Part shown: piece by piece, positions 1,373 to 15,298 of the stretch
Layout: the number at the start of each line of letters is the position of its first letter
How positions within the stretch are numbered: the stretch's first letter is position 1
DNA from: a virus
Lineage: Duplodnaviria > Heunggongvirae > Uroviricota > Caudoviricetes
Virus record (IMG/VR): IMGVR_UViG_2648501299_000001
Location: 1-16,106 of that record
DNA: 16,106 nucleotides
Reading direction: 5' to 3' (one strand)
Notes under the pieces: generated by a model
Database searches by the model: none
What the model was told of the DNA's origin: nothing
What the model saw: only the letters and a program-made list of their open reading frames with translations
Program-made: the position numbers and the translations under genes

Positions 1373-1590
1373 TTCGAACCTCTCTGTTTACTGATAAGCT
1401 CCAGATCTTCCTGGCAACTTGCACAAGTCCGACAACCCTGAACGACCAGGCGTCTTCGTTCATCTATCGGATCGCCACACTCACAACAATGAGTGGCAGA
1501 TATAGCCTGGTGGTTCAGGCGGCGCATTTTTATTGCTGTGTTGCGCTGTAATTCTTCAATTTCTGATGCTGAATCAATGATGTCTGCCAT
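1369..1590 (-). CDS. TraR/DksA-family C4 zinc-finger protein
   Basis: 73 aa ORF with a CxxC...CxxC arrangement (CCECGDPIDERRRLVVQGCRTCASC), typical of phage TraR/DksA-like proteins. ATG at 1590. Confidence 0.7.
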   Translation of the reverse strand: MADIIDSASEIEELQRNTAIKMRRLNHQAISATHCCECGDPIDERRRLVVQGCRTCASCQEDLELISKQRGSK

Positions 1591-1643
1591 CTTCCATTAA
1601 TCCCTGAATTGTTGGTTAATACGCTTGAGGGTGAATGCGAATA

Positions 1644-1667
1644 ATAAAAAAGGAGCCTGTAGCTCCC
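1644..1667 (-). terminator. Intrinsic terminator inside the early-left operon
   Basis: On the minus strand: GGAGC-tacag-GCTCC hairpin followed by TTTTTTT (plus strand 1644-1667 reads aaaaaaaGGAGCctgtaGCTCC). Lies just downstream of the stop of the 1689..2000 gene. Confidence 0.5.
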
Positions 1668-1688
1668 TGATGATTTTGCTTTTCATGT

Positions 1689-2000
1689 TCATCGTTCCTT
1701 AAAGACGCCGTTTAACATGCCGATTGCCAGGCTTAAATGAGTCGGTGTGAATCCCATCAGCGTTACCGTTTCGCGGTGCTTCTTCAGTACGCTACGGCAA
1801 ATGTCATCGACGTTTTTATCCGGAAACTGCTGTCTGGCTTTTTTGATTTCAGAATTAGCCTGACGGGCAATGCTGCGAAGGGCGTTTTCCTGCTGAGGTG
1901 TCATTGAACAAGTCCCATGTCGGCAAGCATAAGCACACAGAATATGAAGCCCGCTGCCAGAAAAATGCATTCCGTGGTTGTCATACCTGGTCTCTCTCAT
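1689..2000 (-). CDS. Hypothetical protein at the lambda orf61 position (start uncertain)
   Basis: ORF with ATG at 2000 overlapping the upstream orf63-like gene by 20 nt, the same overlap I recall for lambda orf61/orf63. Alternative in-frame ATGs at 1970 and 1904 would give 93 or 71 aa. No motif recognised. Confidence 0.45.
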   Translation of the reverse strand: MRETRYDNHGMHFSGSGLHILCAYACRHGTCSMTPQQENALRSIARQANSEIKKARQQFPDKNVDDICRSVLKKHRETVTLMGFTPTHLSLAIGMLNGVFKER

Positions 2001-2172
2001 CTGCTTCTGCTTTCGCCACCATCATTTCCAGCTTTTGTGAAAGGGATGCGGCTAACGTATGAAATTCTTCGTCTGTTTCTACTGGTATTGGCACAAACCT
2101 GACTCCAATTTGAGCGAGGCTATGTGCCATCTCGATACTCGTTCTTAACTCAACGGGAGATGCTTTGTGCAT
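1981..2172 (-). CDS. Lambda orf63-like small protein
   Basis: 192 nt ORF, ATG at 2172 with a GGGGAG RBS 4 nt upstream. Overlaps the orf60a-like ORF by 28 nt; size and overlap match my recollection of lambda orf63. Confidence 0.5.
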   Translation of the reverse strand: MHKASPVELRTSIEMAHSLAQIGVRFVPIPVETDEEFHTLAASLSQKLEMMVAKAEADERDQV

Positions 2173-2327
2173 ACAGCTCCCCGTTTATTATTTATCTCCT
2201 CAGCCAGCCGCTGTGCTTTCAGTGGATTTCTGATAACAGAAAGGCCGGGAAATACCCAGCCTCGCTTTGTAATGGAGTAGACGAAAGTGATCGCGCCTAC
2301 CCGGATATTATCGTGAGGATGCGTCAT
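2145..2327 (-). CDS. Lambda orf60a-like small protein
   Basis: 183 nt (60 aa) ORF taken from the second in-frame ATG (2327-2325), which forms an ATGA overlap with the exo stop; the ORF track starts 2 codons earlier at 2333. Same size and arrangement as lambda orf60a as I recall it. Confidence 0.5.
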
Positions 2328-3004
2328 CGCCATTGCTCCCCAAATACAAAACCAATTTCAGCCAGTGCCTCGTCCATTTTTTCGATGAACTCCGGCACCA
2401 TCTCGTCAAAACTCGCCATGTACTTTTCATCCCGCTCAACCACGACATAATGCAGTCCTTCACGCTTCATACGCGGGTCATAGTTGGCAAAGTACCAGGC
2501 ATCTTTTCGTGTCACCCACATGCTGTACTGCACCTGGGCCATGTAAGCCGACTTTATGGCCTCGAAACCACCGAGCCGGAACTTCATGAAATCCCGGGAG
2601 GTAAACGGGCATTTCAGCTCAAGGCCATTGCCGTCACTGCATAAACCATCGGGAGAGCAGGCGGTGCGCATACTTTCGTCGCGATAGATGATCGGGGATT
2701 CAGTAACATTCACGCCGGAAGTGAATTCAAACAGAGTTCTGGCGTCGTTCTCGTACTGTTTTCCCCATGCCAGCGCCTTAGCATTAACTTCCGGAGCCAC
2801 ACCGGTGCAAACCTCAGCCAGCAGGGTGTGGAAGTAGGACATTTTCATGTCAGGCCACTTCTTTCCTGAGCGGGGCTTGGCTATCACGTTGTGAACTTCT
2901 GAAGCGGTGATGACGCCGAGCCGTAATTTGTGCCATGCATCATCCCCCTGTTCGACAGCTCTTACGTCGATCCCGGTACGCTGCAGTATAATGTCCGGTG
3001 TCAT
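2324..3004 (-). CDS. exo: Lambda-type 5'-3' exonuclease (Red alpha)
   Basis: 226 aa protein ([65 protein letters not shown]...GFVFGEQWR) matches lambda Exo almost residue for residue from memory. ATGA start/stop overlap with bet as in lambda. Confidence 0.95.
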
Positions 3005-3786
3005 GCTGCCACCTTCTGCTCAGTGGCTTTCTGTTTCAGGAATCCAAGAGCTTTCACTGCTTCGGCCTGTGTCAGTTCTGACGATGCGCGAATGTCGCGG
3101 CGAAATATCTGGGAACAGAGCGGCAATAAGTCGTCATCCCATGTTTTATCCAGGGCGATCAGCAGAGTGTTAATCTCCTGCATGGTTTCATCGTTAACCG
3201 GAGTGATGTCGCGTTCCGGCTGACGTTCTGCAGTGTATGCAGTATTTTCGACAATGCGCTCGGCTTCATCCTTGTCATAGATACCAGCAAATCCGAAGGC
3301 CAGACGGGCACACTGAATCATGGCTTTATGACGTAACATCCGTTTGGGATGCGACTGCCACGGCCCCGTGATTTCTCTGCCTTCGCGGGTTTTGAATGGT
3401 TCGCGGCGGCATTCATCCATCCACTCGGTAACGCAGATCGGATGATTACGGTCCTTGCGGTAAATCCGGCATGTGCAGGATTCATTGTCCTGCTCAAAGT
3501 CCATGCCATCAAACTGCTGGTTTTCATTGATGATACGGGACCAGCCATCAACGCCCACCACCGGAACGATGCCGTTCTGCTTGTCAGGGAAGGCGTAAAT
3601 TTCTTTCGTCCACGGATTAAGGCCGTACTGGTTGGCGACGATCAACAATGCGATGAACTGCGCATCGCTGGCATCACCTTTAAATGCCGTCTGGCGAAGA
3701 GTGGTGATCAGTTCCTGTGGGTCGACAGAATCCATGCCGACACGTTCAGCCAGCCTCCCTGCCAGCGTTGCGAGTGCTGTACTCAT
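3001..3786 (-). CDS. bet: Lambda-type single-strand annealing protein (Red beta)
   Basis: 261 aa protein ([85 protein letters not shown]...) matches lambda Bet from memory. Same length and gene order. Confidence 0.95.
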
Positions 3787-3791
3787 CCGTT

Positions 3792-4088
3792 TTATACCTC
3801 TGAATCAATATCAACCTGGTGGTGAGCAATGGTTTCAACCATGTACCGGATGTGTTCTGCCATGCGCTCCTGAAACTCAACATCGTCATCAAACGCACGG
3901 GTAATGGCTTTTTTGCTGGCCCCGTGGCGTTGCAAATGATCGATGCATAGCGATTCAAACAGGTGCTGGGGCAGGCCTTTTTCCATGTCGTCTGCCAGTT
4001 CTGCCTCTTTCTCTTCACGGGCGATCTGCTGGTAGTGACGCGCCCAGCTCTGAGCCTCAAGACGATCCTGAATGTAATAAGCGTTCAT
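3792..4088 (-). CDS. gam: RecBCD inhibitor Gam (98 aa, GamS-length form)
   Basis: [60 protein letters not shown]...[10 protein letters not shown] matches the C-terminal 98 aa of lambda Gam. ATG at 4088 with an AGGAG RBS 7 nt upstream. The reading frame is not open further upstream, so the long form is absent. Confidence 0.9.
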
Positions 4089-4163
4089 GGCTGAACTCCT
4101 GAAAATGGCTGTGAAAATATCGCCCGCGAAATGCCAGGCTGATTAGGAAAACAGGAAAGGGGG

Positions 4164-4370
4164 TTAGTGATTCAGGCCGTTGCCGCGTCCGTCGAGAAAA
4201 ACTTCCACGAGCAAGTCACGGGTATAAGTGCGCTCGATGCCGCGATGCAGATAAAGCCGTCCGCGTAAATTAGCTGATGCAGTCCAGGTACCATCTTTGT
4301 GTTTGACCAGCATTCCTGGCATGACCGCACCGCGATTAACAGTCTGCGTTCCGTAATGTTGATGAACCAT
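4164..4370 (-). CDS. Small hypothetical protein at the kil/cIII position (68 aa; start uncertain)
   Basis: ATG at 4370 preceded by a strong RBS (GGGCAGGAG, 5 nt spacer). The frame stays open upstream to in-frame ATG 4454 and TTG 4574 (ORF-track 136 aa version), whose N-terminus is arginine-rich. Function not recognised. Confidence 0.45.
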
Positions 4371-4639
4371 AAAAACTCCTGCCCGTAAGCTGGGCTGCTG
4401 AACATATAAAGACTTCTGCGCGTATTCAGGCGGTGGATGGCCGCCGGTTGTCATAACTAAGCCGCCTCGTTGAAGCGACTGAGGTATGAAGTGTTGAGTT
4501 GATTTCAGCTGGTCACACCGACGTTCACGCGTCCGCTTCACCCCTCGCACTCCCCGGAGCCTGCTGAAATTCAAGCTGCGGATCTAAGCGGTCATCGCAA
4601 CGGTGAATCAGGTGATTGCCGTATCGTTGTGTTGTTGCG

Positions 4640-4700
4640 ATATGGTGATAATAGCTATTGCTATTGATGATATCAATACTTATTGCTATTGCTAGATGTG
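4640..4700 (-). promoter_or_regulatory. Candidate leftward early promoter (pL-like) with operator-like repeats (OL)
   Basis: On the minus strand: TTGATA (plus 4671-4676), 17 nt spacer, TATTAT (plus 4648-4653). Copies of the TTGCTATTG motif at 4658-4666 and 4683-4691 overlap and flank the promoter; the same motif recurs next to cI/cro (6764-6772, 6789-6797). Confidence 0.45.
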
Positions 4701-4813
4701 TTTTGATATTAAATGTTTGATAGCAAAAAGAATTAATTTTGTGACTTGCATCGCATAGCGATAACTGAAGTGAGGTGTGGTGGTTTTTTGGACGGTATGA
4801 GTTATGAGGGGGA

Positions 4814-4850
4814 GGAAAAGAAAACCCGGCGCGGTTGCCGGGGGCTTTTT
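4814..4850. terminator. Bidirectional intrinsic terminator closing the cI-cassette transcript
   Basis: CCCGGC-gcggtt-GCCGGG hairpin (4825-4842) flanked by an A/T run on each side: GGCTTTTT on the plus strand, TTTTCTTTTCC on the minus strand. Sits 25-60 nt downstream of the stop (4875) of the minus-strand 305 aa gene. Confidence 0.65.
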
Positions 4851-4874
4851 ATAGTGTGTTAGGTAAATAGAATA

Positions 4875-5792
4875 TCAGCCTACTGTTCTAAAGATGAGAA
4901 GTGGTGTCATCCCATACGAATCACTTCCTCTACCAGCTTGTACCTTGACCATATCCAGGAAGGATTGTAATCCTGACTTGAGATCGTGTTCAGGGAAATC
5001 AAGAGGGTTATTGATATTCTGATCTTGTACAGAATCTGGCAAGGCATCAATCAATCCAATGACATGCCAGGTACCCGGTATGGTGCCACCATATTTTAAG
5101 GCTAAGTCATCAGGATTAATTGTTAAATATTCTTTATCAATAGACATCCACATCAGGTTGCCATTCTCATCAATAAAATCAACCTGGAGGATGTTGGGAA
5201 CGATATTAATGAGTTTCTTAACTACACCAATGGTAAGCCCAGGAGATATCTCAATTTCATCTGGGGTGAGTTTCCCTTTAAGCTTCGCTTTGGCTTTTGG
5301 GGGAAGGTTGACCGTGTTTAATTGTGCTTGGGCTATCTCACCAAAAATAGGCATAATTTTCTGAATAGTTGACACATCAAAAATGCGCATTTTTCCAACA
5401 GAATGAACAACTGAACCAAGATTCTCACCATTAAGTCCAGTTTTAATCATTCCTGCTTCATCTAATTTATCGAGAAAATTAATTGGTAATGACCATGAAG
5501 CGTCGAAAGTTTTCTCTTGCGAATGTGTTAAGGCGTCGTCAGTCCCCACTTTTCCTTTAAGAATCTTGACGCTTAATTCAACGGATTTATTAGATTTATC
5601 TGTGTCAGAAGTAGTTTGTTTTACGCTCGTCACTACACCAGCATTGTGAAGCTGGGCTGTGAGGGAGCTAACGCGTACACGGTCTATGTAAAGAAAATCA
5701 AATAGTGAATCTGTGCTTTGTTGTTCGAGCTCCATTTTGCCAATCCTCTCTAAATTTTTCTTTTTCCTCGCGAATTCTTTTTTGCTTTTCAT
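4875..5792 (-). CDS. Hypothetical protein in AT-rich insert downstream of cI (rexA/rexB-equivalent position); 305 aa, or 286 aa from ATG 5735
   Basis: Long ORF with visibly lower GC than the flanking phage genes. The ATG at 5735 has a GAGAGG RBS about 9 nt upstream; the ATG at 5792 has a weaker context. Same strand as cI and followed by the terminator at 4814-4850. No motif recognised. Confidence 0.6.
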   Translation of the reverse strand: MKSKKEFARKKKNLERIGKMELEQQSTDSLFDFLYIDRVRVSSLTAQLHNAGVVTSVKQTTSDTDKSNKSVELSVKILKGKVGTDDALTHSQEKTFDASWSLPINFLDKLDEAGMIKTGLNGENLGSVVHSVGKMRIFDVSTIQKIMPIFGEIAQAQLNTVNLPPKAKAKLKGKLTPDEIEISPGLTIGVVKKLINIVPNILQVDFIDENGNLMWMSIDKEYLTINPDDLALKYGGTIPGTWHVIGLIDALPDSVQDQNINNPLDFPEHDLKSGLQSFLDMVKVQAGRGSDSYGMTPLLIFRTVG

Positions 5793-5877
5793 CTATCTCA
5801 TCGAAAAGTTGAATGAGTTCATCCACACCATGTGAAGGCGTCTCTGATTTCACTTTCTTCAAAATTTTCTTGAACAT
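5698..5877 (-). CDS. Possible small charged protein (59 aa) between cI and the 305 aa gene
   Basis: ATG at 5877 (MFKKILKKVKSETPSHGVDELIQLFDEIDEKQKRIREEKEKFREDW...). No clear RBS, and it overlaps the 5' end of the 305/286 aa ORF in another frame. Could be real or an AT-rich artefact. Confidence 0.25.
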   Translation of the reverse strand: MFKKILKKVKSETPSHGVDELIQLFDEIDEKQKRIREEKEKFREDWQNGARTTKHRFTI

Positions 5878-6026
5878 GATGATTTTCCATAGAGAACTGA
5901 CTGTACAAATTATGTTCTCTTTGTCACATGAAAGCAACTGTACCAGGACAAGCAAAGTGTGTCTCCAAAGATCGCTTTAATCACATGTTACAGCTTTTTT
6001 GTCAGCTTTGGTCCCATGAAGACGCT

Positions 6027-6719
6027 TTACCCATGCTTCCTGTATGTCTGCGGCATGCTCCCAATAACCTTACCGAAGATGAACACCCGGTTCATCTCGT
6101 CTTTCTCGATCGGGTCCCACGGCGAGTAGCTCTTGTTATCAGAGATAACCAGCAGCTTATCCTTCATCATTTGAAGACGTTTTACATGGGCAGTGTCGTC
6201 GTACAGAAACGCATAGATGCCATCACCGTCGAAAGATTTAACAGTGATATCAACGAACAGCAGGTCACCTGGTTCGATCGTTCCTGACATGCTGTCACCA
6301 CGCACGTTAATGATGCGGATATTTTCCGCCTTCCTGCCATCGAACATGTGACGAGCATCGTCAAACGAGTATTCAACCGAGCGTAGAACTTCTACAAACT
6401 CACGGTTGATTACACCCGGCCCGGCACTGACTTCCATATCAAGAACGTCAATTTTGAAGTATTTGGAATGGCTGACAGCAGGCTTCCCTGATTGTTGACC
6501 GTCATTTCTCATCGGGCCTATGCCTGATGAGAGCCATTCTGTTCGAACACCCAATGCATTAGCTATTTCAACAATTTTTGTTGAGCCGCGCGCGTTGCCG
6601 CTTGTCAGTCTCCAGATTGTGGGTTGAGCTACGCCAGACGCCTTTGCAAGAGCGCCTTGAGACATTCCAGATTGTTCCATCGCTAGGTTTAAGCGATCAG
6701 CAAGAGTTTCTTTTTTCAT
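6027..6719 (-). CDS. cI: cI-like prophage repressor (HTH-XRE N-terminal domain plus LexA/S24-type autopeptidase domain)
   Basis: N-terminal HTH (LADRLNLAMEQSGMSQGALAKASGVAQPTIWRL), an Ala-Gly candidate cleavage site (SAGPG), and S24 catalytic motifs GDSM (Ser) and VKRL (Lys). First ATG at 6719 has no SD, consistent with a leaderless or short-leader pRM-type transcript; the ORF-track start at 6755 is TTG. Divergent from the cro-like gene. Confidence 0.85.
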   Translation of the reverse strand: MKKETLADRLNLAMEQSGMSQGALAKASGVAQPTIWRLTSGNARGSTKIVEIANALGVRTEWLSSGIGPMRNDGQQSGKPAVSHSKYFKIDVLDMEVSAGPGVINREFVEVLRSVEYSFDDARHMFDGRKAENIRIINVRGDSMSGTIEPGDLLFVDITVKSFDGDGIYAFLYDDTAHVKRLQMMKDKLLVISDNKSYSPWDPIEKDEMNRVFIFGKVIGSMPQTYRKHG

Positions 6720-6755
6720 AAGTTTTAATTTATACGCTTGCGTATTGATGGTCAA

Positions 6756-6829
6756 AACACGTTTTGCTATTGCTTGGATTAATACGCATTGCTATTATTC
6801 ATTCATTGCAATACCAATAGGAATTGATA
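6756..6829. promoter_or_regulatory. Divergent cI/cro control region (OR-like operators, candidate pR and pRM)
   Basis: Plus strand: TTGCTT (6770-6775), 17 nt spacer, TATTAT (6793-6798) as a candidate pR. Minus strand: TTGACC then about 16 nt then ATAAAT just upstream of the cI ATG as a candidate pRM. TTGCTATTG/TTGCTATTA motifs at 6764-6772 and 6789-6797 overlap the -35 and -10. Confidence 0.5.
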
Positions 6830-7057
6830 ATGACAAATCAAACCATTCAACTCGCAATCAGTATTACAGGTAGTCAAAAACGACTGGCAGATCTATGCGG
6901 TGTAGCCCAACCCACAGTTTGGCGTTGGCTACACGGTGGCGGAATTGATGCCCGCTATGTAATGAAAATTGTCTCAGCCACTGGTGGAAAGATTAAACCA
7001 GCAGATATTCGTCCCGACCTCGCACCATTGTTTAACGCGAGTAATTCTGCCGCCTAA
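6830..7057 (+). CDS. cro: Cro-like HTH regulator (YdaS-like family)
   Basis: 75 aa from ATG 6830 (AGGA 8 nt upstream); the ORF-track start at 6824 is TTG. HTH signature (SQKRLADLCGVAQPTVWRW). First gene transcribed divergently from cI. Confidence 0.65.
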   Translation: MTNQTIQLAISITGSQKRLADLCGVAQPTVWRWLHGGGIDARYVMKIVSATGGKIKPADIRPDLAPLFNASNSAA

Positions 7058-7081
7058 ACTGCGGCGTTAACTGATAAGGCA

Positions 7082-7627
7082 ATGACTATGCAACCACTTA
7101 CATACCAACAGACTAGCGGATTTAGCCCAACTGCGGTGATAAATCGTTCTCAAACAAAACAGGTGCCAGGCCACGAAAAAATCCGTGATGCCGTCCGCGC
7201 CTGGTCGGCTGTAGATAATCAGGATGTCGTTGCCACACTCATTGTGAATGAGTATCGGGAGCAGGGCGGCGGCACCATCGATTTCCCTGATGATGTCAGC
7301 CGTGCACGCCAGAAGCTGTTCCGCTTCCTCGATAACAAATTCGATTCTGAAAAATACCGAAATAACGTGCGTGAACTGACCCCGGCAATTCTGGCGGTAC
7401 TACCGCTGGAATATCGCGGTTACCTGGTTGAGCAGGATAGCTTCATGGCTAGGTTGGCTGAAATGGAAAAGGAACTCAGCGAGGCAAAACAGGCTGTCAT
7501 TCTCAACGCACCACGCCACCAGAAACTGAAGGAAATTAGTGAAGGTATTGTGTCGATGTTTCGTGTGGACCCAGATCTGGCTGGTCCATTGATGGCGATG
7601 GTTACTACCATGCTGGGGGCGATATGA
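7082..7627 (+). CDS. CII-like regulator (YdaT-like family)
   Basis: 181 aa. Segments IVNEYREQGGG and ELTPAILAVLPLEYRGYL resemble Rac YdaT-family proteins as I recall them. Sits at the cII position between cro and O. Confidence 0.55.
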   Translation: MTMQPLTYQQTSGFSPTAVINRSQTKQVPGHEKIRDAVRAWSAVDNQDVVATLIVNEYREQGGGTIDFPDDVSRARQKLFRFLDNKFDSEKYRNNVRELTPAILAVLPLEYRGYLVEQDSFMARLAEMEKELSEAKQAVILNAPRHQKLKEISEGIVSMFRVDPDLAGPLMAMVTTMLGAI

Positions 7628-7713
7628 CAGGTTCAGAAATGGCGAAAGCCGGTCTGCTGGAACAGAACCGACTTTCAGGTGCAAATCGTAACACACTCAT
7701 TGCGGGAGGAATT

Positions 7714-8643
7714 ATGGCAAACACTGCTGAGATATTCAATTTTCCTGTGCCGGATGCGGCACAAAAGGAGCCGCGCGTGGCAGATCTCGATGATGGTTAT
7801 ACGCGCATTGCAAATGAGTTGCTGGAAGCTGTAATGCTGGCCGGATTAACACAGCACCAGCTTCTGGTCTTCCTGGCTGTCATGCGCAAAACATATGGCT
7901 TTAATAAAAAACTGGATTGGGTGAGCAACGAGCAACTTTCCGAGTTGACCGGGATATTGCCGCACAAGTGTTCTGCTGCAAAAAGTGTTCTGGTAAAGCG
8001 TGGGATTTTTATTCAGAGCGGGCGGAATATCGGCATCAATAATGTGGTCAGTGAATGGTCAACATTACCCGAATCAGGTAAGAAAAATAAAGTTTACCTG
8101 AAAGAGGTAAATTTACCTGAATCAGGTAAGAAAAGTTTACCCAAATCAGGTAAAGGCGTTTACCCGAATCAGGTAAACACAAAAGACAAACTAACAAAAG
8201 ACAATATAAAACCTTTTTCGTCCGAGAATTCTGGCGAATCCTCTGACCAACCAGAAAACGATCTTCCTGTGGTGAAACCAGATGCTGCAATTCAGAGCGG
8301 CAGCAAGTGGGGGACAGCAGAAGACCTGACCGCCGCAGAGTGGATGTTTGACATGGTGAAGACCATCGCGCCATCAGCCAGAAAACCGAATTTTGCAGGG
8401 TGGGCTAACGATATCCGCCTGATGCGTGAACGTGACGGACGTAACCACCGCGACATGTGCGTGCTGTTCCGCTGGGCATGCCAGGACAACTTCTGGTCCG
8501 GTAACGTGCTAAGTCCGGCCAAACTCCGCGACAAGTGGACCCAGCTCGAAATCAACCGTAACAAGCAACAGGCAGGCGTGACAGCCAGCAAACCAAAACT
8601 CGACCTGACAAACACAGACTGGATTTACGGGGTTGATCTATGA
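7714..8643 (+). CDS. O: Replication initiator O (lambda O family), containing ori iterons
   Basis: ATG at 7714 with GGAGG 5 nt upstream; the ORF-track start 7624 overlaps the CII-like gene. The N-terminal domain resembles lambda O (VADLDDGYTRIANELLEA ... RKTYGFNK). The gene carries iterons encoding LPESGKK repeats, then an AT-rich segment. ATGA overlap with P. Confidence 0.85.
   Translation: MANTAEIFNFPVPDAAQKEPRVADLDDGYTRIANELLEAVMLAGLTQHQLLVFLAVMRKTYGFNKKLDWVSNEQLSELTGILPHKCSAAKSVLVKRGIFIQSGRNIGINNVVSEWSTLPESGKKNKVYLKEVNLPESGKKSLPKSGKGVYPNQVNTKDKLTKDNIKPFSSENSGESSDQPENDLPVVKPDAAIQSGSKWGTAEDLTAAEWMFDMVKTIAPSARKPNFAGWANDIRLMRERDGRNHRDMCVLFRWACQDNFWSGNVLSPAKLRDKWTQLEINRNKQQAGVTASKPKLDLTNTDWIYGVDL
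8065..8213. repeat. Replication origin: four 18 bp iterons plus one degenerate copy, followed by an A/T-rich tract
   Basis: TTACCCGAATCAGGTAAG (8065-8082), TTACCTGAATCAGGTAAG (8113-8130), TTACCCAAATCAGGTAAA (8137-8154), TTACCCGAATCAGGTAAA (8160-8177), with a degenerate copy near 8094-8110. Each is an inverted repeat TTACC...GGTAA. Followed by acacaaaagacaaactaacaaaagacaatataaaacc (8178-8213). Confidence 0.85.
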
Positions 8644-9341
8644 AAAACATCGCCGCACAGATGGTTAACTTTGACCGTGAGCAGATGCGTCGGATCGCCA
8701 ACAACATGCCGGAACAGTACGACGAAAAGCCGCAGGTACAGCAGGTAGCGCAGATCATCAACGGTGTGTTCAGCCAGTTACTGGCAACTTTCCCTGCGAG
8801 CCTGGCTAACCGTGACCAGAACGAACTGAACGAAATTCGCCGCCAGTGGGTTCTGGCTTTCCGGGAAAACGGGATCACCACAATGGAACAGGTTAACGCT
8901 GGAATGCGCGTAGCCCGTCGGCAGAATCGACCATTCCTGCCATCACCCGGGCAGTTTGTCGCCTGGTGCCGGGAAGAAGCATCCGTTACCGCCGGGCTGC
9001 CAAACGCCAGCGAGCTGGTTGATATGGTTTACGAGTATTGCCGGAAACGTGGCCTGTATCCGGATGCAGAGTCTTATCCGTGGAAATCAAACGCGCACTA
9101 CTGGCTGGTTACCAACCTGTATCAGAACATGCGGGCCAATGCGCTGACTGATGCGGAATTACGGCGCAAGGCTGCCGATGAACTGGCCTGTATGACAGCG
9201 CGAATTAACCGTGGTGAGGCGATACCTGAACCAGTAAAACAACTTCCTGTCATGGGCGGTAGACCTCTAAATCGTGCACAGACTCTGGCGAAGATCGCAG
9301 AAATCAAAGCTAAGTTTGGGCTGAAAGGAGCAAGGGTATGA
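8640..9341 (+). CDS. P: Replication protein P (DnaB helicase loader)
   Basis: 233 aa protein (MKNIAAQMVNFDREQMRRIANNMPEQYDEKPQVQQVAQIINGVFSQLLATFPASLANRDQNE...) matches lambda P from memory with only a few substitutions. Confidence 0.95.
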   Translation: MKNIAAQMVNFDREQMRRIANNMPEQYDEKPQVQQVAQIINGVFSQLLATFPASLANRDQNELNEIRRQWVLAFRENGITTMEQVNAGMRVARRQNRPFLPSPGQFVAWCREEASVTAGLPNASELVDMVYEYCRKRGLYPDAESYPWKSNAHYWLVTNLYQNMRANALTDAELRRKAADELACMTARINRGEAIPEPVKQLPVMGGRPLNRAQTLAKIAEIKAKFGLKGARV

Positions 9342-9631
9342 CGGGCAAAGAGGCAATTATTCATTACCTGGGGACTCATAAGAACTTCTGTGCGCAGGAC
9401 GTTGCCGCGGTAACAGGCGCAACCGTAACCAGCATAAATCAGGCTGCGGCTAAAATGGCGCGGGCAGGAATCCTGGTCGTTGATGGTAAGGTCTGGCGAA
9501 CGGTGTATTACCGGTTCGCTACCAGAGAAGAACGGGAAGGAAAGGTGAGCACGAATCTGATTTTTAAGGAGTGTCGTCAAAGTGCCGCGATGAAGCGGGT
9601 GTTGATGGTTTGGGGGAGGGTAGGGTATTGA
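9338..9631 (+). CDS. ren: Ren (Rex-exclusion relief protein)
   Basis: MTGKEAIIHYLGTH...VTSINQAAAKMARAGILVVDGKVWRTVYYRFATREEREGK matches lambda Ren from memory. ATGA overlap with P. Confidence 0.9.
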   Translation: MTGKEAIIHYLGTHKNFCAQDVAAVTGATVTSINQAAAKMARAGILVVDGKVWRTVYYRFATREEREGKVSTNLIFKECRQSAAMKRVLMVWGRVGY

Positions 9632-9723
9632 AATCAATGGAATTTCCAAAACCTAAAGTTATAATAACAAGGCCTCAATGGCTGGTTTTTATATCTTTTG
9701 CACATAAAATAAGGGTTTAAGCG

Positions 9724-10536
9724 ATGATTTTTATTAGTCATAATTATAAAGACAAAGCTTTCGTTGGGTATATTGCAGATAAAATTGCAGATATATATGG
9801 CAGGGATAACGTATTTTATGATTCGTGGTCAATTCAGCCTGGTGAAGGGATTATTGAACGAATGAATGATGGAATCGAATCCGTTAAAATTTTCTTTTTC
9901 TTTGTTACAAAAAATAGCCTTAAGAGTGATATGGTGTCTTTAGAATGGCAGAATGCACTTATGAAAGCCGCCACTGGAGATGTTAAATTCATTGCTATAC
10001 GTTGTGATGAATCACCTATGCCTGCACTTCTTACTCAAAAAGTGTATTTGGACCTTTATACAAATGGTATAGATGTAGTGATAGCACAAATGAATGATAT
10101 TATCTCTGGTAAAAGCACTTATAAACCTCAGGATGAATTATTCTCCAATCTTTCATATGACTTTAAAACAGAATCCAATAAAGTAATAGTTAGGGTTTCC
10201 GCTGATCATTTTAGCGAGGTTACCGCTGACTTTTTGTTCTTATTTACTAATAAATTAAAGGATAATGAATTAAGATATAATGTATTAGGTGAAAGTGGTT
10301 TTATCCAAGGTTTCCGTTCAGACTATAAACTAAGCACGGGTGAAGTGTTTAGCGCACAAATGGTTGCATTAATGCATGGTCTTAAACCAAAAATTCATTT
10401 GACTGTGGAGTTTTGGCTTGATTCAGGAGATGAACTTATTCTCGCACATGTTATGAGTAAAACATCAACAGATCAGTACACGACCATACCATACAAGAAA
10501 AAAACAGATTTTAGCGGCTTTAACATGAAATTCTAA
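9724..10536 (+). CDS. TIR-domain protein (N-terminal TIR-like domain, uncharacterised C-terminal domain); AT-rich insert
   Basis: N-terminus MIFISHNYKDKAFVGYIADKIADIYGRDNVFYDSWSIQPGEGIIERMNDGIESVKIFFFFVTKNSLKSDMVSLEWQNAL follows the TIR pattern: FIS(H/Y)xxxD box, W.D..I.PG, hydrophobic strand then S..S, and a conserved Glu in SLEW. The C-terminal ~150 aa are not recognised. Markedly AT-rich codon usage. Flanked by non-coding DNA on both sides. Confidence 0.6.
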   Translation: MIFISHNYKDKAFVGYIADKIADIYGRDNVFYDSWSIQPGEGIIERMNDGIESVKIFFFFVTKNSLKSDMVSLEWQNALMKAATGDVKFIAIRCDESPMPALLTQKVYLDLYTNGIDVVIAQMNDIISGKSTYKPQDELFSNLSYDFKTESNKVIVRVSADHFSEVTADFLFLFTNKLKDNELRYNVLGESGFIQGFRSDYKLSTGEVFSAQMVALMHGLKPKIHLTVEFWLDSGDELILAHVMSKTSTDQYTTIPYKKKTDFSGFNMKF

Positions 10537-10570
10537 AATTGATTTTCCATAATCAAACCGCCATACTTGT

Positions 10571-10599
10571 GTCACCGGAGCTTGAACAACTTCGGTGAC
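10571..10599 (+). other. Stable hairpin without U-tract between the TIR gene and ybcN-like gene
   Basis: GTCACCGGAG-cttgaacaa-CTTCGGTGAC: 10 bp stem (one G-U pair), 9 nt loop. No T-run on either strand. Confidence 0.4.
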
Positions 10600-10720
10600 T
10601 TCTGCGCTAAACGGGGACGTTTATGCGCACATACAATCCAAACTCTCTTCTCCCTTCACAGATGCAGAAATGTACCTGCGATTTTTTGCATCCAGCGTTT
10701 GACCTCTGCGGAGGTGAAGC

Positions 10721-11176
10721 GTGAACCTCCCACAAGATGGTATCAAATTGCATCGCGGTAACTTCACCGCTATCGGTCGGCAGATCCAGCCTTATCTGGA
10801 GGACGGCAAATGCTTTCGCATGGTGCTTAAACCGTGGCGCGAGAGACGCAGTCTTTCCCAGAATGCACTCAGCCACATGTGGTACAGCGAAATCAGTGAA
10901 TACCTCATCAGCAGGGGTAAAACGTTCGCCACTCCAGCTTGGGTAAAAGATGCTCTCAAACACACATATCTCGGTTATGAAACCAAAGACCTGGTTGATG
11001 TCGTAACCGGTGATATCACCACTATCCAGTCGTTACGCCATACCTCCGATCTTGATACCGGAGAGATGTATGCCTTCCTGTGTAAGGTTGAAGCCTGGGC
11101 GATGAATATTGGCTGCCACCTGACTATTCCGCAGAGCTGCGAGTTCCAGCTGCTGCGCGACAAGCAGGAGGCGTAA
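10721..11176 (+). CDS. ybcN: YbcN/NinB-position protein (DLP12 ybcN-like)
   Basis: 151 aa. GTG start at 10721 with GGAGG 6 nt upstream. Sits upstream of ninE as in DLP12-type nin regions. Family assignment is from recalled gene order and length, not verified. Confidence 0.55.
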
Positions 11177-11347
11177 TGGCTACACCGCTTATTCGTGTCA
11201 TGAACGGACACATCTACAAAGTACCAAATCGTCGTAAGCGTAAACCTGAGCTGAAGCCATCCGAAATACCAACTCTGCTCGGATATACCGCCAGCCTGGT
11301 TGATAAAAAATGGTTGCGACTGGCAGCAAGGAGGAATCATGGCTGAT
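11177..11347 (+). CDS. ninE: NinE-like small protein (56 aa; absent from the ORF track)
   Basis: Hand translation: [59 protein letters not shown] directly after the ybcN-like stop with AGGAGG upstream. The basic, W-containing C-terminus resembles lambda NinE. Overlaps the next gene start by ATGGCTGA. Confidence 0.6.
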
Positions 11348-11629
11348 TTGAGAAAAGCAGCGCGTGGTCGGGAATGCCAGGTAAGAATCCCTGGCGTATG
11401 TAATGGCAATTCTGAAACGTCTGTACTGGCACATATCCGGCTGGCTGGATTGTGCGGTACCGGTATCAAACCGCCAGACCTGATTGCCACTATCGCATGT
11501 TCTGCCTGTCACGACGAAATCGACCGCCGCACACATTTTGTCGATGCTGAGTATGCAAAAGAATGCGCGCTGGAAGGTATGGCGAGAACACAGGTTATCT
11601 GGCTGAAAGAGGGGGTTATTAAGGCGTGA
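11339..11629 (+). CDS. ybcO: DUF1364-type Cys-rich protein (DLP12 ybcO-like)
   Basis: 96 aa from ATG 11339 (AGGAGG upstream); the ORF-track start 11300 is further upstream. Cys-rich ([11 protein letters not shown]...[11 protein letters not shown]). Sits between ninE and rusA as in DLP12. Confidence 0.6.
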
Positions 11630-11988
11630 ATACTTACAGCATCACATTACCCTGGCCTCCGAGCAATAATCGCTATTACCGCCATAATCGCGGGCGCACG
11701 CACATCAGCGCAGAGGGGCAGGCATACCGCGATAACGTCGCCCGAATCATTAAAAACGCAATGCTGGATATCGGCCTGGCTATGCCTGTGAAAATCCGTA
11801 TTGAGTGCCACATGCCGGATCGCCGTCGCCGTGACCTGGATAATCTGCAAAAAGCCGCTTTTGACGCACTCACCAAAGCAGGTTTCTGGCTGGATGATGT
11901 TCAGGTCGTTGATTACCGTGTTGTGAAGATGCCCGTTACCAAAGGTGGGAAGTTGGAGCTGACCATCACCGAACTGGGAGATGAATGA
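11626..11988 (+). CDS. rusA: Holliday junction resolvase RusA
   Basis: 120 aa protein ([26 protein letters not shown]...[34 protein letters not shown]...) matches E. coli RusA from memory. GTG start at 11626. Confidence 0.9.
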
Positions 11989-12125
11989 TGTTTGAGTCTT
12001 ATATGGCAGAACGTCTTCGCCGCCGCTGGGTGCGCCTGCGCTTATATCGTTTTCCCGGTTCTGTTTTGACCGATTACCGAATACTGAAGAATTACGCCAA
12101 AACACTGAAAGGAGCTGCCGCATGA
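11988..12125 (+). CDS. ylcG: YlcG-like small protein (45 aa; absent from the ORF track)
   Basis: Hand translation: [45 protein letters not shown]. Start overlaps the rusA stop (TGATG); its stop overlaps the next gene start. Resembles DLP12 YlcG as I recall it. Confidence 0.6.
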   Translation: MFESYMAERLRRRWVRLRLYRFPGSVLTDYRILKNYAKTLKGAAA

Positions 12126-12811
12126 ATATCCAATATTTACAGTATGTTCGCGAGCAACTCATGGTGGCTACCGCTGATTTGAGCGGAGTAACGAAAGGCC
12201 AGCTTGAAGCCTGGCTGGAGCATGCTCAATTTGATACTGGTACATACAAACGAAAGAAGCCGCGCATTCTGGATGAGGTAACTGGCAGGATGATTACGCT
12301 GGATAATCCGCCGATTTCCGGTAAGCAGTCGTACGCAAAAGGTTCATCCATTGCACTGGTCAGCCAGGTTGAGTTCTCAACATCTTCATGGCGCCGCGCG
12401 GTTCTGTCTCTCGAAGAACACCAGAAAGCGTGGTTGCTGTGGAGTTACAGCGAAAGTGTTCGCTGGGAGCATCAGGTTGCCATAACGCAGTGGGCATGGA
12501 ACGAGTTTAAGGCTCTGTTAGGTACAAGAAAAATTGCCAGTAAGACACTGGAACGCTTAAAGAAGTTGATCTGGCTGGCGGCACAGGATGTGAAGAACGA
12601 GCTGGCAGGGCGTAAGACCTATGAATACCAGGAGCTGGCATCACTGGTGGGAGTGACATCAAAAAACTGGTCTGAGACATTTACTGAACGCTGGGTTGCA
12701 ATGAAGCACATTTTTCTACAGCTTGATAGCCAAGCTTTATTGCTTTTAACGAAAACACGTTCAAAACAAAAGGCGACATTTTCACAGCAAAGTATTGCAA
12801 AACTGGATTAA
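12122..12811 (+). CDS. Putative late-gene antiterminator (Q-position protein), 229 aa
   Basis: Occupies the Q position between rusA/ylcG and the late promoter/lysis cassette. The sequence is not lambda Q and has no Cys zinc finger. The call is by synteny only. Confidence 0.4.
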   Translation: MNIQYLQYVREQLMVATADLSGVTKGQLEAWLEHAQFDTGTYKRKKPRILDEVTGRMITLDNPPISGKQSYAKGSSIALVSQVEFSTSSWRRAVLSLEEHQKAWLLWSYSESVRWEHQVAITQWAWNEFKALLGTRKIASKTLERLKKLIWLAAQDVKNELAGRKTYEYQELASLVGVTSKNWSETFTERWVAMKHIFLQLDSQALLLLTKTRSKQKATFSQQSIAKLD

Positions 12812-12841
12812 AAAGCATATATTTCGTGTAAATCTGATATT

Positions 12842-12870
12842 TTGCCAATGTTGTACGCACTGGCAGTAAT
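12842..12870 (+). promoter_or_regulatory. Candidate late promoter (pR'-like)
   Basis: TTGCCA (12842-12847), 17 nt spacer, AGTAAT (12865-12870), in the 308 bp non-coding gap after the Q-position gene. The match is weak. Confidence 0.3.
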
Positions 12871-12991
12871 CCAAATTCAAGCCCGAGGTTTAAAACTTTG
12901 GGCTTTTCTGTTTCTGGACGGTGAGTAGCCTTCCAACCTACCCCAGCCAGGGTGTTTCAGCTGTTGAGTTGATATTGCTTAACCCTCTGTT

Positions 12992-13016
12992 GCCAGCTAC
13001 ATGCTGGCTTTTTTAT
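12992..13016 (+). terminator. Intrinsic terminator (tR'-like) upstream of the lysis cassette
   Basis: GCCAGC-tacat-GCTGGC hairpin followed by CTTTTTTATT. Confidence 0.6.
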
Positions 13017-13131
13017 TCCAGGCTTGCGGGGAGCATCAACTCCGTGCTTTGTCGTTAAATTACCCCGTGAGCCTGATTTCTGACATTTAACGTCCCGGCC
13101 TTTTGTCGGCGGCGAAACATTGGCTATTCAT

Positions 13132-13437
13132 ATGCACGAAAAAGAGAGCCTTGCCGGAGCGTTCTGGCTCGTTTTGCTGATCATCGCAGGTTGGGGCGGT
13201 CTGGTCCGCTACCTGATAGATGTGAAGCAGAGTAAAGCAACGTGGAGTTGGATAAATGCTCTGGCTCAGATAGTGGTATCAGGATTCACCGGTGTTATTG
13301 GTGGCCTGATCAGCATCGAAAGTGGATTCAGTATTTACATGATTCTCGCGACAGCGGGGATTAGTGGTGCGATGGGTTCGGTTGCACTGACGTACTTCTG
13401 GGAACGACTGACAGGGGTGAAAAATGCAAAATCTTAA
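13132..13437 (+). CDS. Holin (three predicted transmembrane segments); possible dual start at TTG 13120 and ATG 13132
   Basis: Three hydrophobic stretches (LAGAFWLVLLIIAGWGGLV, INALAQIVVSGFTGVIGGLISI, IYMILATAGISGAMGSVAL) and a charged C-terminus. Immediately upstream of, and overlapping, the endolysin gene. Confidence 0.65.
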   Translation: MHEKESLAGAFWLVLLIIAGWGGLVRYLIDVKQSKATWSWINALAQIVVSGFTGVIGGLISIESGFSIYMILATAGISGAMGSVALTYFWERLTGVKNAKS

Positions 13438-13900
13438 TCCTCAGCGTAAGGCTTTCCTCGATATGGTGGCATGGTCAGAGGGAACTGATAACGGACGGCA
13501 GAAAACCAGAAATCATGGTTATGACGTCATTGTAGGAGGAGAGCTATTCACTGATTACTCCGATCACCCTCGCAAACTTGTCACGCTAAACCCCAAACTC
13601 AAATCAACAGCCGCCGGACGCTACCAGCTTCTTTCCCGTTGGTGGGATGCCTACCGCAAGCAGCTTGGCCTGAAAGACTTCTCTCCCAAAAGCCAGGACG
13701 CTGTGGCATTGCAGCAGATTAAGGAGCGTGGCGCTTTACCGATGATTGATCGCGGTGATATTCGTCAGGCAATCGACCGTTGCAGCAATATCTGGGCTTC
13801 ACTGCCCGGTGCTGGCTACGGTCAGTATGAACACAAGATCGATAGTCTGATTGCCAAATTCAAAGAAGCTGGCGGGGTGGTTAATGAAACTTCGCTATAA
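13424..13900 (+). CDS. R: Endolysin, lambda R-type lytic transglycosylase
   Basis: 158 aa protein (..NQRKAFLDMVAWSEGTDNGRQKTRNHGYDVIVGGELFTDYSDHPRKLVTLNPKLKSTAAGRYQLLSRWWDAYRKQLGLKDFSPKSQDAVALQQIKERGALPMIDRGDIRQAIDRCSNIWASLPGAGYGQ...) matches lambda R from memory. Confidence 0.92.
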   Translation: MQNLNPQRKAFLDMVAWSEGTDNGRQKTRNHGYDVIVGGELFTDYSDHPRKLVTLNPKLKSTAAGRYQLLSRWWDAYRKQLGLKDFSPKSQDAVALQQIKERGALPMIDRGDIRQAIDRCSNIWASLPGAGYGQYEHKIDSLIAKFKEAGGVVNETSL

Positions 13901-14376: not shown

Positions 14377-14403
14377 AGCCTCGCGAAAAGCGGGGCTTTT
14401 TTA
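14377..14403 (+). terminator. Intrinsic terminator after Rz
   Basis: AGCCTCGC-gaaaa-GCGGGGCT hairpin (one G-U pair) followed by TTTTTT. Confidence 0.55.
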
Positions 14404-14546
14404 TGTCCGCAGTAAACCGCGCATCTCACGCGCATATTAACGAGAGCCTTTCAGTAAGCGAGCCTGAGAAATGCCGTTATAGGTGGCGACCTCTCTCGGG
14501 CGGCTTTTCTGTGAGACAGGCTCACTTTCTAAAAGGTAAAGACGCT

Positions 14547-15044
14547 ATGAAAGCAATCACGCTTTTTAATACACCGATCCGTGTTGATGAATCAGGAATG
14601 ATCTGCCTCACTGATATGTGGAAAGCCAGTGGTAAAAGTGAATCTGAATCGCCTTACCACTACCTGCGAAACAAGCAGACCAAAGAGTTCTTAGCCGAGC
14701 TGGAGAAAAACCACGAATCTGTGGTTTTTACTGAGCGCGGTGTACACGGTGGAACATATGGCGGGAAGTTTGTTGCTTACGATTATGCGGCTTGGTTAAA
14801 CCCCGGGTTCAAGTACGCGGCCTATAAAGTCCTCGATGACTACTTCACCGGAGAACTTCAGCATCGCAACAGCTTAAGTGCGCAGCTCAACATGAAATGT
14901 CATGAGTTTGACCAGAAGAAAGACATGGCGAGCTTCTGCGGACAAGGGCTGGCAGCATGGCGCTATACGAAGCCAGTGTTGGTCGCTGAGATTAACTCCC
15001 TGGCTAACCAGCTGCAGATTACGATCCCCGGGCTTCTGGGATGA
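14547..15044 (+). CDS. KilA-N domain-like protein (165 aa from ATG 14547)
   Basis: The ORF-track start 14403 overlaps the terminator, so the internal ATG 14547 (MKAITLFNTPIRVDESGMICLTDMWKASGK...) is preferred. This N-terminal pattern resembles KilA-N/Bro-N domain proteins common after lysis cassettes. ATGA coupling to the next ORF. Confidence 0.5.
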   Translation: MKAITLFNTPIRVDESGMICLTDMWKASGKSESESPYHYLRNKQTKEFLAELEKNHESVVFTERGVHGGTYGGKFVAYDYAAWLNPGFKYAAYKVLDDYFTGELQHRNSLSAQLNMKCHEFDQKKDMASFCGQGLAAWRYTKPVLVAEINSLANQLQITIPGLLG

Positions 15045-15298
15045 GTGATCGTGTTATTGAATGCGCCTCCAGAGCGGGGCGCGACTTCTCAGAGTTCATG
15101 AAAGGCGAGAAGGGCATGATGGAAGCATTGGCCTCGGTGGATGAGTTTGGCGAGCAGCTGCGCCTCAACGGCTGTGTCAATCATCACTTTGTTAGCTACA
15201 TGATGCGGAACTCGATCATGCAGGCATTCATGGACATGGCAAAAGCCGAGAGGAAAGAAGAGCGCCGGCGTAAGCGAGCGGAAGCAAAAGCGAAGTAG
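15041..15298 (+). CDS. Hypothetical protein (85 aa), basic C-terminus
   Basis: Translationally coupled (ATGA) to the KilA-N gene. Lys/Arg/Glu-rich C-terminal tail. No motif recognised. Confidence 0.5.
   Translation: MSDRVIECASRAGRDFSEFMKGEKGMMEALASVDEFGEQLRLNGCVNHHFVSYMMRNSIMQAFMDMAKAERKEERRRKRAEAKAK

Follow-up and report, generated by a model that had tools for sequence, protein, structure and literature searches.

What does a lone, AT-rich gene for a TIR-domain protein do between the replication genes and the nin genes of a lambdoid prophage? We addressed this question for the open reading frame at 9724-10536 (+ strand, ATG to TAA) of a 16,106-nucleotide stretch of viral DNA, hereafter the window, which covers the early genes and the lysis genes of a lambdoid prophage. 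The gene encodes a 270-aa protein with a TIR domain followed by a beta-sandwich. An identical protein is found, for example, in E. coli (EFA6965363.1), and the locus encoding WP_052246034.1 shares 99.9% DNA identity with the reading frame. In the literature that we searched, WP_052246034 is not mentioned.

Prophage setting and boundaries of the insert

The window holds exo, bet, gam, and kil, a DUF6414 gene, the gene of a repressor resembling cI, genes similar to YdaS and YdaT, and O, P, and ren; the TIR gene comes after ren and is followed by orf33, ybcN, ninE, ybcO, rusA, ylcG, and Q, and then by the holin, lysozyme, and Rz genes. Positions 1404-13875 are 98% identical to a prophage of E. 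coli EH10-18-47 that lies at tRNA-Thr beside proA and combines an early region like that of the window with a contractile-tail late region. As a first-pass annotation of the sequence had proposed, the TIR gene is strongly AT-rich compared with its lambda-like neighbors: its GC content is 0.335 (GC3 0.27), versus 0.54 for P (8640-9341), 0.52 for ren (9338-9631), and 0.51 for ybcN/orf151 (10721-11176), with a GC3 of 0.57-0.61 for the neighbors. The same annotation had listed rusA among the flanking genes, which is incorrect, as ybcN/orf151 follows the junction and rusA lies four genes beyond.

To the left, the insert includes an AT-rich spacer of 92 bp upstream of the gene (9632-9723, + strand, GC 0.315). 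To the right, an alignment with phage 82 and two other TIR-carrying prophages places its boundary 2 nt past the stop codon. The idea that the gene is bracketed by non-coding DNA thus holds for the upstream spacer and fails for the 184 bp downstream (10537-10720), which are backbone and partly coding; from position 10539 they are shared with phage 82 and DLP12-type phages. Specifically, 10539-10724 (+ strand) is conserved lambdoid nin-region backbone that lies outside the insert and aligns with phage 82 (X92588) and other TIR-carrying prophages. It starts with the inverted repeat TTGATTTTCCATAATCAA (10539-10556), continues with a hairpin (10571-10599) that the phage 82 annotation labels a 'possible regulator-binding site', and ends with a small open reading frame, orf33 (10623-10724, + strand), which overlaps the start of ybcN/orf151 (+ strand) directly after it. 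Of 5,426 complete E. coli genomes, 2,760 contain the 184 bp (90-95% identity) and one contains the TIR gene. The strong hairpin that had been noted downstream is real, with a 10-bp stem and z=-2.4 for the region, but it lies outside the insert and is common to phage 82. We considered this hairpin as a terminator of the TIR gene and rejected it, given that it is backbone shared with phage 82 and has no T-run. No T-run terminator was found after the TIR stop codon, no direct or inverted repeats (transposition signatures) were found flanking the insert, and Rfam families gave no match within 9300-11000.

The upstream spacer contains a perfect TATAAT (9660-9665) with a weak -35 element (3/6) and a ribosome-binding site, TAAGGG (9710-9715), and the TATAAT is kept in an 84%-identical allele (L016). 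A strict consensus scan of 9632-9723 did not find a full promoter. We infer that the spacer is the predicted promoter region of the TIR gene itself; the perfect TATAAT, conserved in the closest allele, is the one feature that points to expression in the lysogen.

The insertion lies at the ren/nin junction, as the annotation had read it, and E. kobei prophages use the identical site: in two different E. kobei prophages (57% identity), the gene is found at the same place, directly before ninB/ybcN. A metagenomic lambdoid prophage contig carries the 84%-identical allele at the same ren/nin position as the gene in the window. The junction upstream of the orf33-ybcN block is a cargo site, because it holds different cargo in different lambdoid phages, including ybcK, ybcL, and ybcM in DLP12-type phages. 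These morons share the insertion point of the TIR gene, upstream of the conserved orf33-ybcN-ninE-ybcO-rusA block, and are likewise AT-rich foreign DNA with no flanking repeats, although the cargo genes themselves differ from the TIR gene. In SfI, ren runs straight into ninA and ninB at this junction. Given its foreign GC content (0.33 vs 0.52), its presence or absence among collinear phages, and its location at a module boundary, the TIR gene is most likely a single-gene cargo ('moron') of a temperate phage.

Other parts of the window also deviate from the standard lambda arrangement. A second AT-rich cargo region (4875-5792, - strand, with a small open reading frame at 5698-5955, - strand; GC 0.36-0.39 vs ~0.52) lies where lambda has rexAB, flanked on one side by the early-left genes kil/gam and on the other by the gene for the cI-like repressor. 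Its product is a DUF6414 protein of 305 aa (Pfam E=6e-10) for which PADLOC has no model, and this gene may be another candidate for prophage-borne defense or exclusion. Two genes take the places of cro and cII in lambda. The first (6824-7057, + strand) is a short helix-turn-helix gene, which the 98%-identical prophage lists as 'helix-turn-helix domain-containing protein' and whose positional counterpart in relatives is YdaS-like; the second is a YdaT-like gene (7082-7627, + strand; Pfam YdaT_toxin E=8.8e-30). After the lysis cassette, two reading frames (14403-15044 and 15041-15298, both + strand) encode a KilA-N + ORF11CD3 protein that matches the PADLOC candidate PDC-S22 (E=1.3e-8). They lie where the match of the window to the EH10-18-47 prophage ends, and this place, ahead of the HNH and terminase genes, is thus another variable spot for cargo.

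A TIR domain joined to a family-specific beta-sandwich

The N-terminal part of the protein (aa 1-128, 9724-10107, + strand) is a TIR domain, an assignment made earlier from motifs on which the Pfam, PDB sequence, and fold comparisons now all agree. Pfam TIR_2 matches aa 2-113 with E=8.5e-20 (71.9 bits vs a cut-off of 28), and in an AlphaFold2 model built from 50 homologues (mean pLDDT 87), aa 1-128 adopt the flavodoxin-like TIR fold by fold comparison. The motifs quoted in the annotation are present and correspond to the most conserved positions of the family: FISHNYKDK (aa 3-11), VFYDSWSIQPGEG (aa 30-42, with the BB-loop region FYDSWSIQPGEG at aa 31-42), and SLEW (aa 72-75). Across the 50 homologues, F3, S5, D10, K11, F31-S36 (FYDSWS), P39, G40, E74, and W75 are invariant. 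The conserved glutamate of SLEW was correctly singled out: Glu74 (putative catalytic residue, codon at 9943-9945, + strand) aligns with the glutamate of the 'nyEld' motif of AbTIR, which we take to be the catalytic residue of that enzyme. Among solved structures, the closest TIR domains by sequence are those of Cat1 (8.9e-10), 9m0n (824 aa, 2.9e-9), and AbTIR (1.3e-7). We read 9m0n, deposited as 'Tetratricopeptide repeat protein', as being of the TIR-NLR/TPR type, and going by sequence, the closest TIRs are self-acting NADases or effectors. ThsB_TIR (PF08937) gave no Pfam match at E up to 1, PADLOC ThsB1 matched weakly (E=0.032, 11.5 bits), and the TIR domains of Brucella TcpB and BtpA also gave weak sequence matches. 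A Pfam match to RNase_P_Rpp14 fell below threshold (E=0.006) and was attributed to chance.

A linker (aa 129-142, 10108-10149, + strand; pLDDT ~65) that ends in a conserved FSNL motif, with F140 nearly invariant and N142 invariant, connects the TIR domain to an all-beta sandwich (aa 143-254, 10150-10485, + strand). Modeled alone, this C-terminal domain reached a pLDDT of 90.6 and a pTM of 0.84. The first-pass annotation had recognized nothing in the C-terminal ~150 aa, and we found the same: this half has no match in Pfam, NCBIfam, PHROGs, or PADLOC, while its beta-sandwich is confidently modeled. The SAVED, STING, CARF, SLOG, and Macro folds do not match the domain, and a search of the viral folds in BFVD returned nothing meaningful. 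Rather than a nucleotide-sensor fold, it is a beta-sandwich of the binding-module type, like carbohydrate-binding and adhesin modules. To define where else this domain occurs, we searched its profile against 1.84 billion representative proteins (full HMMER) and retrieved 235 proteins, all of which have the TIR + beta-sandwich architecture or are fragments, except for two long outliers. These are fn3 and Calx-beta repeat proteins, which we took as spurious cumulative beta-sandwich matches. No fusion of the domain to other effectors was found with either the word-indexed search or the full HMMER search of the 1.84 billion representatives. Since the profile retrieves only this architecture or fragments, the two spurious outliers aside, the C-terminal domain is family-specific. 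The proposal that the TIR is fused to a new domain is thereby supported, in the form of a beta-sandwich without a described family, and we propose that aa 143-254 serve as a sensor or clustering domain.

Distribution, genomic contexts, and evolution of the family

The TIR + beta-sandwich family is conserved and spread over several phyla. With a word-indexed search, we found at least 617 clusters (90% identity) of full-length relatives of 255-280 aa in which both domains align. The named sources among these clusters are Enterobacterales, Bacteroidales, Prevotella, and Parvimonas; others come from marine (Tara) and other metagenomes. The exact 270-aa protein occurs on 117 contigs, and its 90% cluster has members from E. 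coli, Klebsiella, Citrobacter, Enterobacter, Cedecea, Providencia, and Proteus, with all named members carrying the generic name 'TIR domain-containing protein'. A tblastn search of 50,697 sequenced phage genomes found no homologues. The family gene is present on 37 viral contigs of IMG/VR.

We then compared the genomic contexts of the relatives. On the IMG/VR contigs, the family gene lies just upstream of terS (small terminase subunit) in ~15 loci (L029-L032, L034, L036, L037, L044, and L051; L035, L040-L043, and L058). It lies between terL and the portal gene in two loci (L056 and L057, TIR gene at 6001-6789), on the same strand and with gaps of 38 bp and 2 bp, and it adjoins the portal gene in another (L027, TIR gene at 6001-6789). 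In seven other IMG/VR loci, its neighbors are tail and relaxase genes, and in further ones they are serine recombinases. The proximity to packaging genes in these unrelated phages may reflect no more than cargo hotspots at genome ends, but it stands out in view of the several lone TIR NADases for which portal proteins are the activators. Outside the viral contigs, the homologue stands alone on the chromosome in Parvimonas and in two more lineages, adjoins a 989-aa TIR-HD protein in another Bacteroidales lineage, and is carried full-length by three plasmids, two of which are 8-kb Bacillus plasmids. On these Bacillus plasmids (8.3-8.8 kb; NZ_CP012107.1, homologue H51 at 3341-4108, and NZ_CP128155.1, homologue H52; 38-39% identity), the lone TIR gene takes up much of the coding capacity. 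The Prevotella homologue shares a defense island with GmrSD, a gene with an FRG domain, and a Thoeris-like pair of ThsA_Macro and ThsB. In this locus (L008), the FRG-domain gene (5032-5985) ends 16 bp upstream of the TIR homologue (6001-6774), and the two may form an operon in the Prevotella lineage only. An AAA_15 gene is also near, as are GmrSD and the ThsA_Macro and ThsB_TIR pair (10309-11771), making this a dense defense island.

To search for partners, we clustered all open reading frames within 3 kb of the family gene in 56 loci. No conserved partner emerged, and only lineage-specific phage backbone genes recurred. The earlier observation that no partner gene is visible therefore applies to the window and extends to the 56 loci, among which none is conserved. 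ThsA, CD-NTase, SAVED, STING, CARF, and NLR elements are likewise absent from the protein and the window, and none is conserved beside the homologues.

The two halves of the gene evolve differently. The mean pairwise identity within the family is 61% for the TIR domain versus 32% for the C-terminal domain, and an E. kobei allele is 46% identical in the C-terminal domain. Measured against the alleles of 84% identity, the TIR domain has a dN of 0.03 and the C-terminal domain one of 0.20 (about sixfold higher), with dN/dS values of 0.03-0.04 and 0.08-0.12, respectively. The overall dN/dS range of 0.03-0.26 in both halves indicates a functional gene under purifying selection; both halves are constrained, and the C-terminal half evolves much faster. 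When the gene in the window was compared with three alleles (L016, L024, and L025), dS was ~0.88 in the TIR half and ~1.8-2.4, near saturation, in the C-terminal half. This tentatively suggests that intragenic mosaic recombination swaps the C-terminal domain between alleles, a reading to be taken with the near-saturated dS in mind.

A predicted phage-triggered NADase and its alternatives

The protein combines a conserved catalytic domain of the NAD-depleting type with a fast-evolving, private second domain of the binding type, it has no partner, and it travels on mobile elements, where it occupies cargo sites and defense islands. For these reasons, we think that it is probably a self-contained abortive-infection or superinfection-exclusion protein, predicted to act as a phage-triggered NADase. 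The computational tests suggested in the first-pass annotation all favor its reading of the gene as a possible single-gene TIR defense or exclusion system. We propose, by analogy, that it works like SpbK, TIR-V and TIR-IX, and Swarozyc. SpbK is activated by the SPbeta portal protein YonE through TIR clustering (PMC11984713, PMC12847820); the E. coli proteins TIR-V and TIR-IX are triggered by portals and TIR-VI by a tail fiber, each as a single protein (PMC11350192); and Swarozyc is a single-protein NADase for which the phage portal is the platform of assembly into an active supramolecular complex, with abortive infection as the outcome (10.64898/2026.05.01.722283). In the proposed mechanism, the AT-rich promoter region of the gene itself would drive transcription in the lysogen, and the dispersed protein would stay inactive. 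Upon infection by another phage, the fast-evolving beta-sandwich would bind a phage protein, most plausibly a multimeric component of the virion or packaging machinery, such as the portal, capsid, or tail. Binding would crowd the TIR domains into head-to-tail assemblies with a composite active site around Glu74, as suggested by SpbK, AbTIR, and SARM1. The NAD+ of the cell would then be hydrolyzed and depleted, so that the infected cell no longer supports the phage and the lysogen population, together with its prophage, is protected.

[quoted passage not shown] SpbK (YddK, from Bacillus subtilis ICEBs1) has the reverse domain order, with the sensor (aa 1-94) preceding the TIR domain (aa 116-267), and it comes from another host phylum and another carrier element. 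Its similarity to the 270-aa protein is marginal and limited to the TIR (profile E=0.006), and we found neither the N-terminal YonE-binding domain with a C-terminal TIR nor the full-length homology that define its family. SpbK is also absent from the fold matches of the beta-sandwich, although the SpbK chain compared has ~156 residues and the sensor may lie outside the comparison. Swarozyc is a DUF4062 TIR-like NADase of a different catalytic family, and our protein does not match DUF4062. [quoted passage not shown] The same study lists 64 E. coli TIR clusters and only partly cloned the small ones (Wang et al., 2024; PMC11350192). If it is in that set, the gene studied here would sit in these small clusters, given that one of the 5,426 complete E. 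coli genomes carries it. Cat1, TIR-SAVED, and TIR-STING resemble our protein in joining an N-terminal TIR to a C-terminal regulatory domain in one chain of similar size (263 aa for Cat1); their TIRs deplete NAD+ upon oligomerization, and that of Cat1 is the best PDB sequence match. However, they are receptors of nucleotide signals (CARF, SAVED, or STING) with a cyclase or CRISPR complex nearby, whereas our protein has a beta-sandwich. We found no SAVED, STING, CARF, or cNMP-binding domain of the type used in CBASS, Pycsar, or type III CRISPR, and no signal-synthesizing neighbor (CD-NTase, cyclase, or Cas10 complex) in any of the contexts examined. At 270 aa, the protein also lacks the NACHT/STAND ATPase and TPR parts of the TIR-NLR, Rst_TIR-NLR, and TIR-TPR (TIR-II) systems, with the PADLOC TIR-NLR match confined to the TIR (aa 3-85, on a model of 824 positions). 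It has no fused reverse transcriptase or msr-msd RNA as in Retron-TIR: the NCBIfam Retron-TIR match is confined to the TIR part (33.7 bits vs a cut-off of 600), and Rfam was blank in 9300-11000.

Several other explanations have to be weighed against a self-contained NADase. One of these is that the protein is an orphan TIR of the ThsB type, which detects infection and then produces a cADPR-isomer or ADPR-conjugate signal for an effector encoded elsewhere in the host (ThsA-like SLOG/Macro, caspase-like, or other). A resident system of the Thoeris type would thereby gain a new specificity of sensing. Like our protein, ThsB is a small bacterial TIR protein that senses infection and needs a conserved glutamate for catalysis. 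In Thoeris, however, an adjacent ThsA-type effector reads the TIR product; our gene has no such effector, and its beta-sandwich is extra. No effector of this type (SIR2, TM, Macro, or caspase-like, with a SLOG/Macro sensor) was found in the window or the annotated prophage, and no ThsA-like gene lies beside the TIR gene in the window or in the 50-odd other loci. Within the 56 loci, the one occurrence of ThsA_Macro, three genes from the homologue in the Prevotella lineage, comes with its own ThsB. Moreover, a phage-borne gene that moves among E. coli, Klebsiella, Citrobacter, Enterobacter, Providencia, and Proteus could not count on a host effector, its Pfam family is TIR_2 rather than ThsB_TIR with PF08937 and PADLOC ThsB placing it outside the ThsB family, and the nearest TIRs by sequence are NAD-depleting effectors. 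We therefore regard an orphan ThsB as quite improbable.

A role outside antiviral defense has even less in its favor. The protein could be a lysogenic-conversion factor of the Tcp type that, like TcpC and BtpA, acts against TLR/MyD88 signaling, or it could metabolize NAD for the phage life cycle. The weak matches to the TIR domains of Brucella TcpB and BtpA fit such a role, as do the human-associated enterobacteria that carry the gene and the likeness of the beta-sandwich to carbohydrate-binding and adhesin modules. The family is nevertheless also present in marine (Tara) samples, in several phyla and many metagenomes, and on Bacillus soil plasmids, and its locations in defense islands and as prophage cargo point to conflict between mobile elements. 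In addition, the arrangement of Tcp proteins is the opposite one, their TIR being C-terminal, and because the N terminus is itself the first TIR strand (MIFISH...), there is no room for a leader peptide. These observations make such a role very unlikely. Least probable of all, in our view, is that the TIR fold acts on a substrate other than NAD+, hydrolyzing or transferring N-glycosidic groups of nucleosides or nucleotides (2-deoxyribosyltransferase/MilB type), with nucleotides or modified phage DNA precursors as substrates; both the profile matches and the motif pattern speak against it.

The self-contained NADase can be extended to a broader reading, which we consider unlikely to hold as a whole. 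According to this reading, the family constitutes a single-protein immune system that is widespread but has no name, and its beta-sandwich represents a new class of phage sensor, found only with this TIR. It may monitor the packaging machinery of rivals or, as a checkpoint, that of its own phage, or it may make a diffusible signal without a linked effector. Monitoring of the packaging machinery is suggested by the repeated location of the gene beside terS, terL, and portal genes in unrelated phages. If true, the emerging rule of TIR activation by portals would extend to a sensor of a new structural type.

As single-protein TIR immunity is already an established concept, the conceptual gain is incremental, and the novelty lies in the C-terminal domain and in a sizeable, unnamed family. 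The ren/nin junction of lambdoid prophages is a cargo site worth mining for defense genes. Knowing the trigger would bear on how generally multimeric virion proteins cluster TIRs, as in SpbK, TIR-V and TIR-IX, and Swarozyc, and it would also show how a plain beta-sandwich can gate a TIR NADase. If active, the protein would constitute a compact, one-gene TIR immune module of 270 aa that temperate phages have spread across Enterobacterales, with family relatives in Bacteroidota and Firmicutes and a putative sensor domain without a described homologue.
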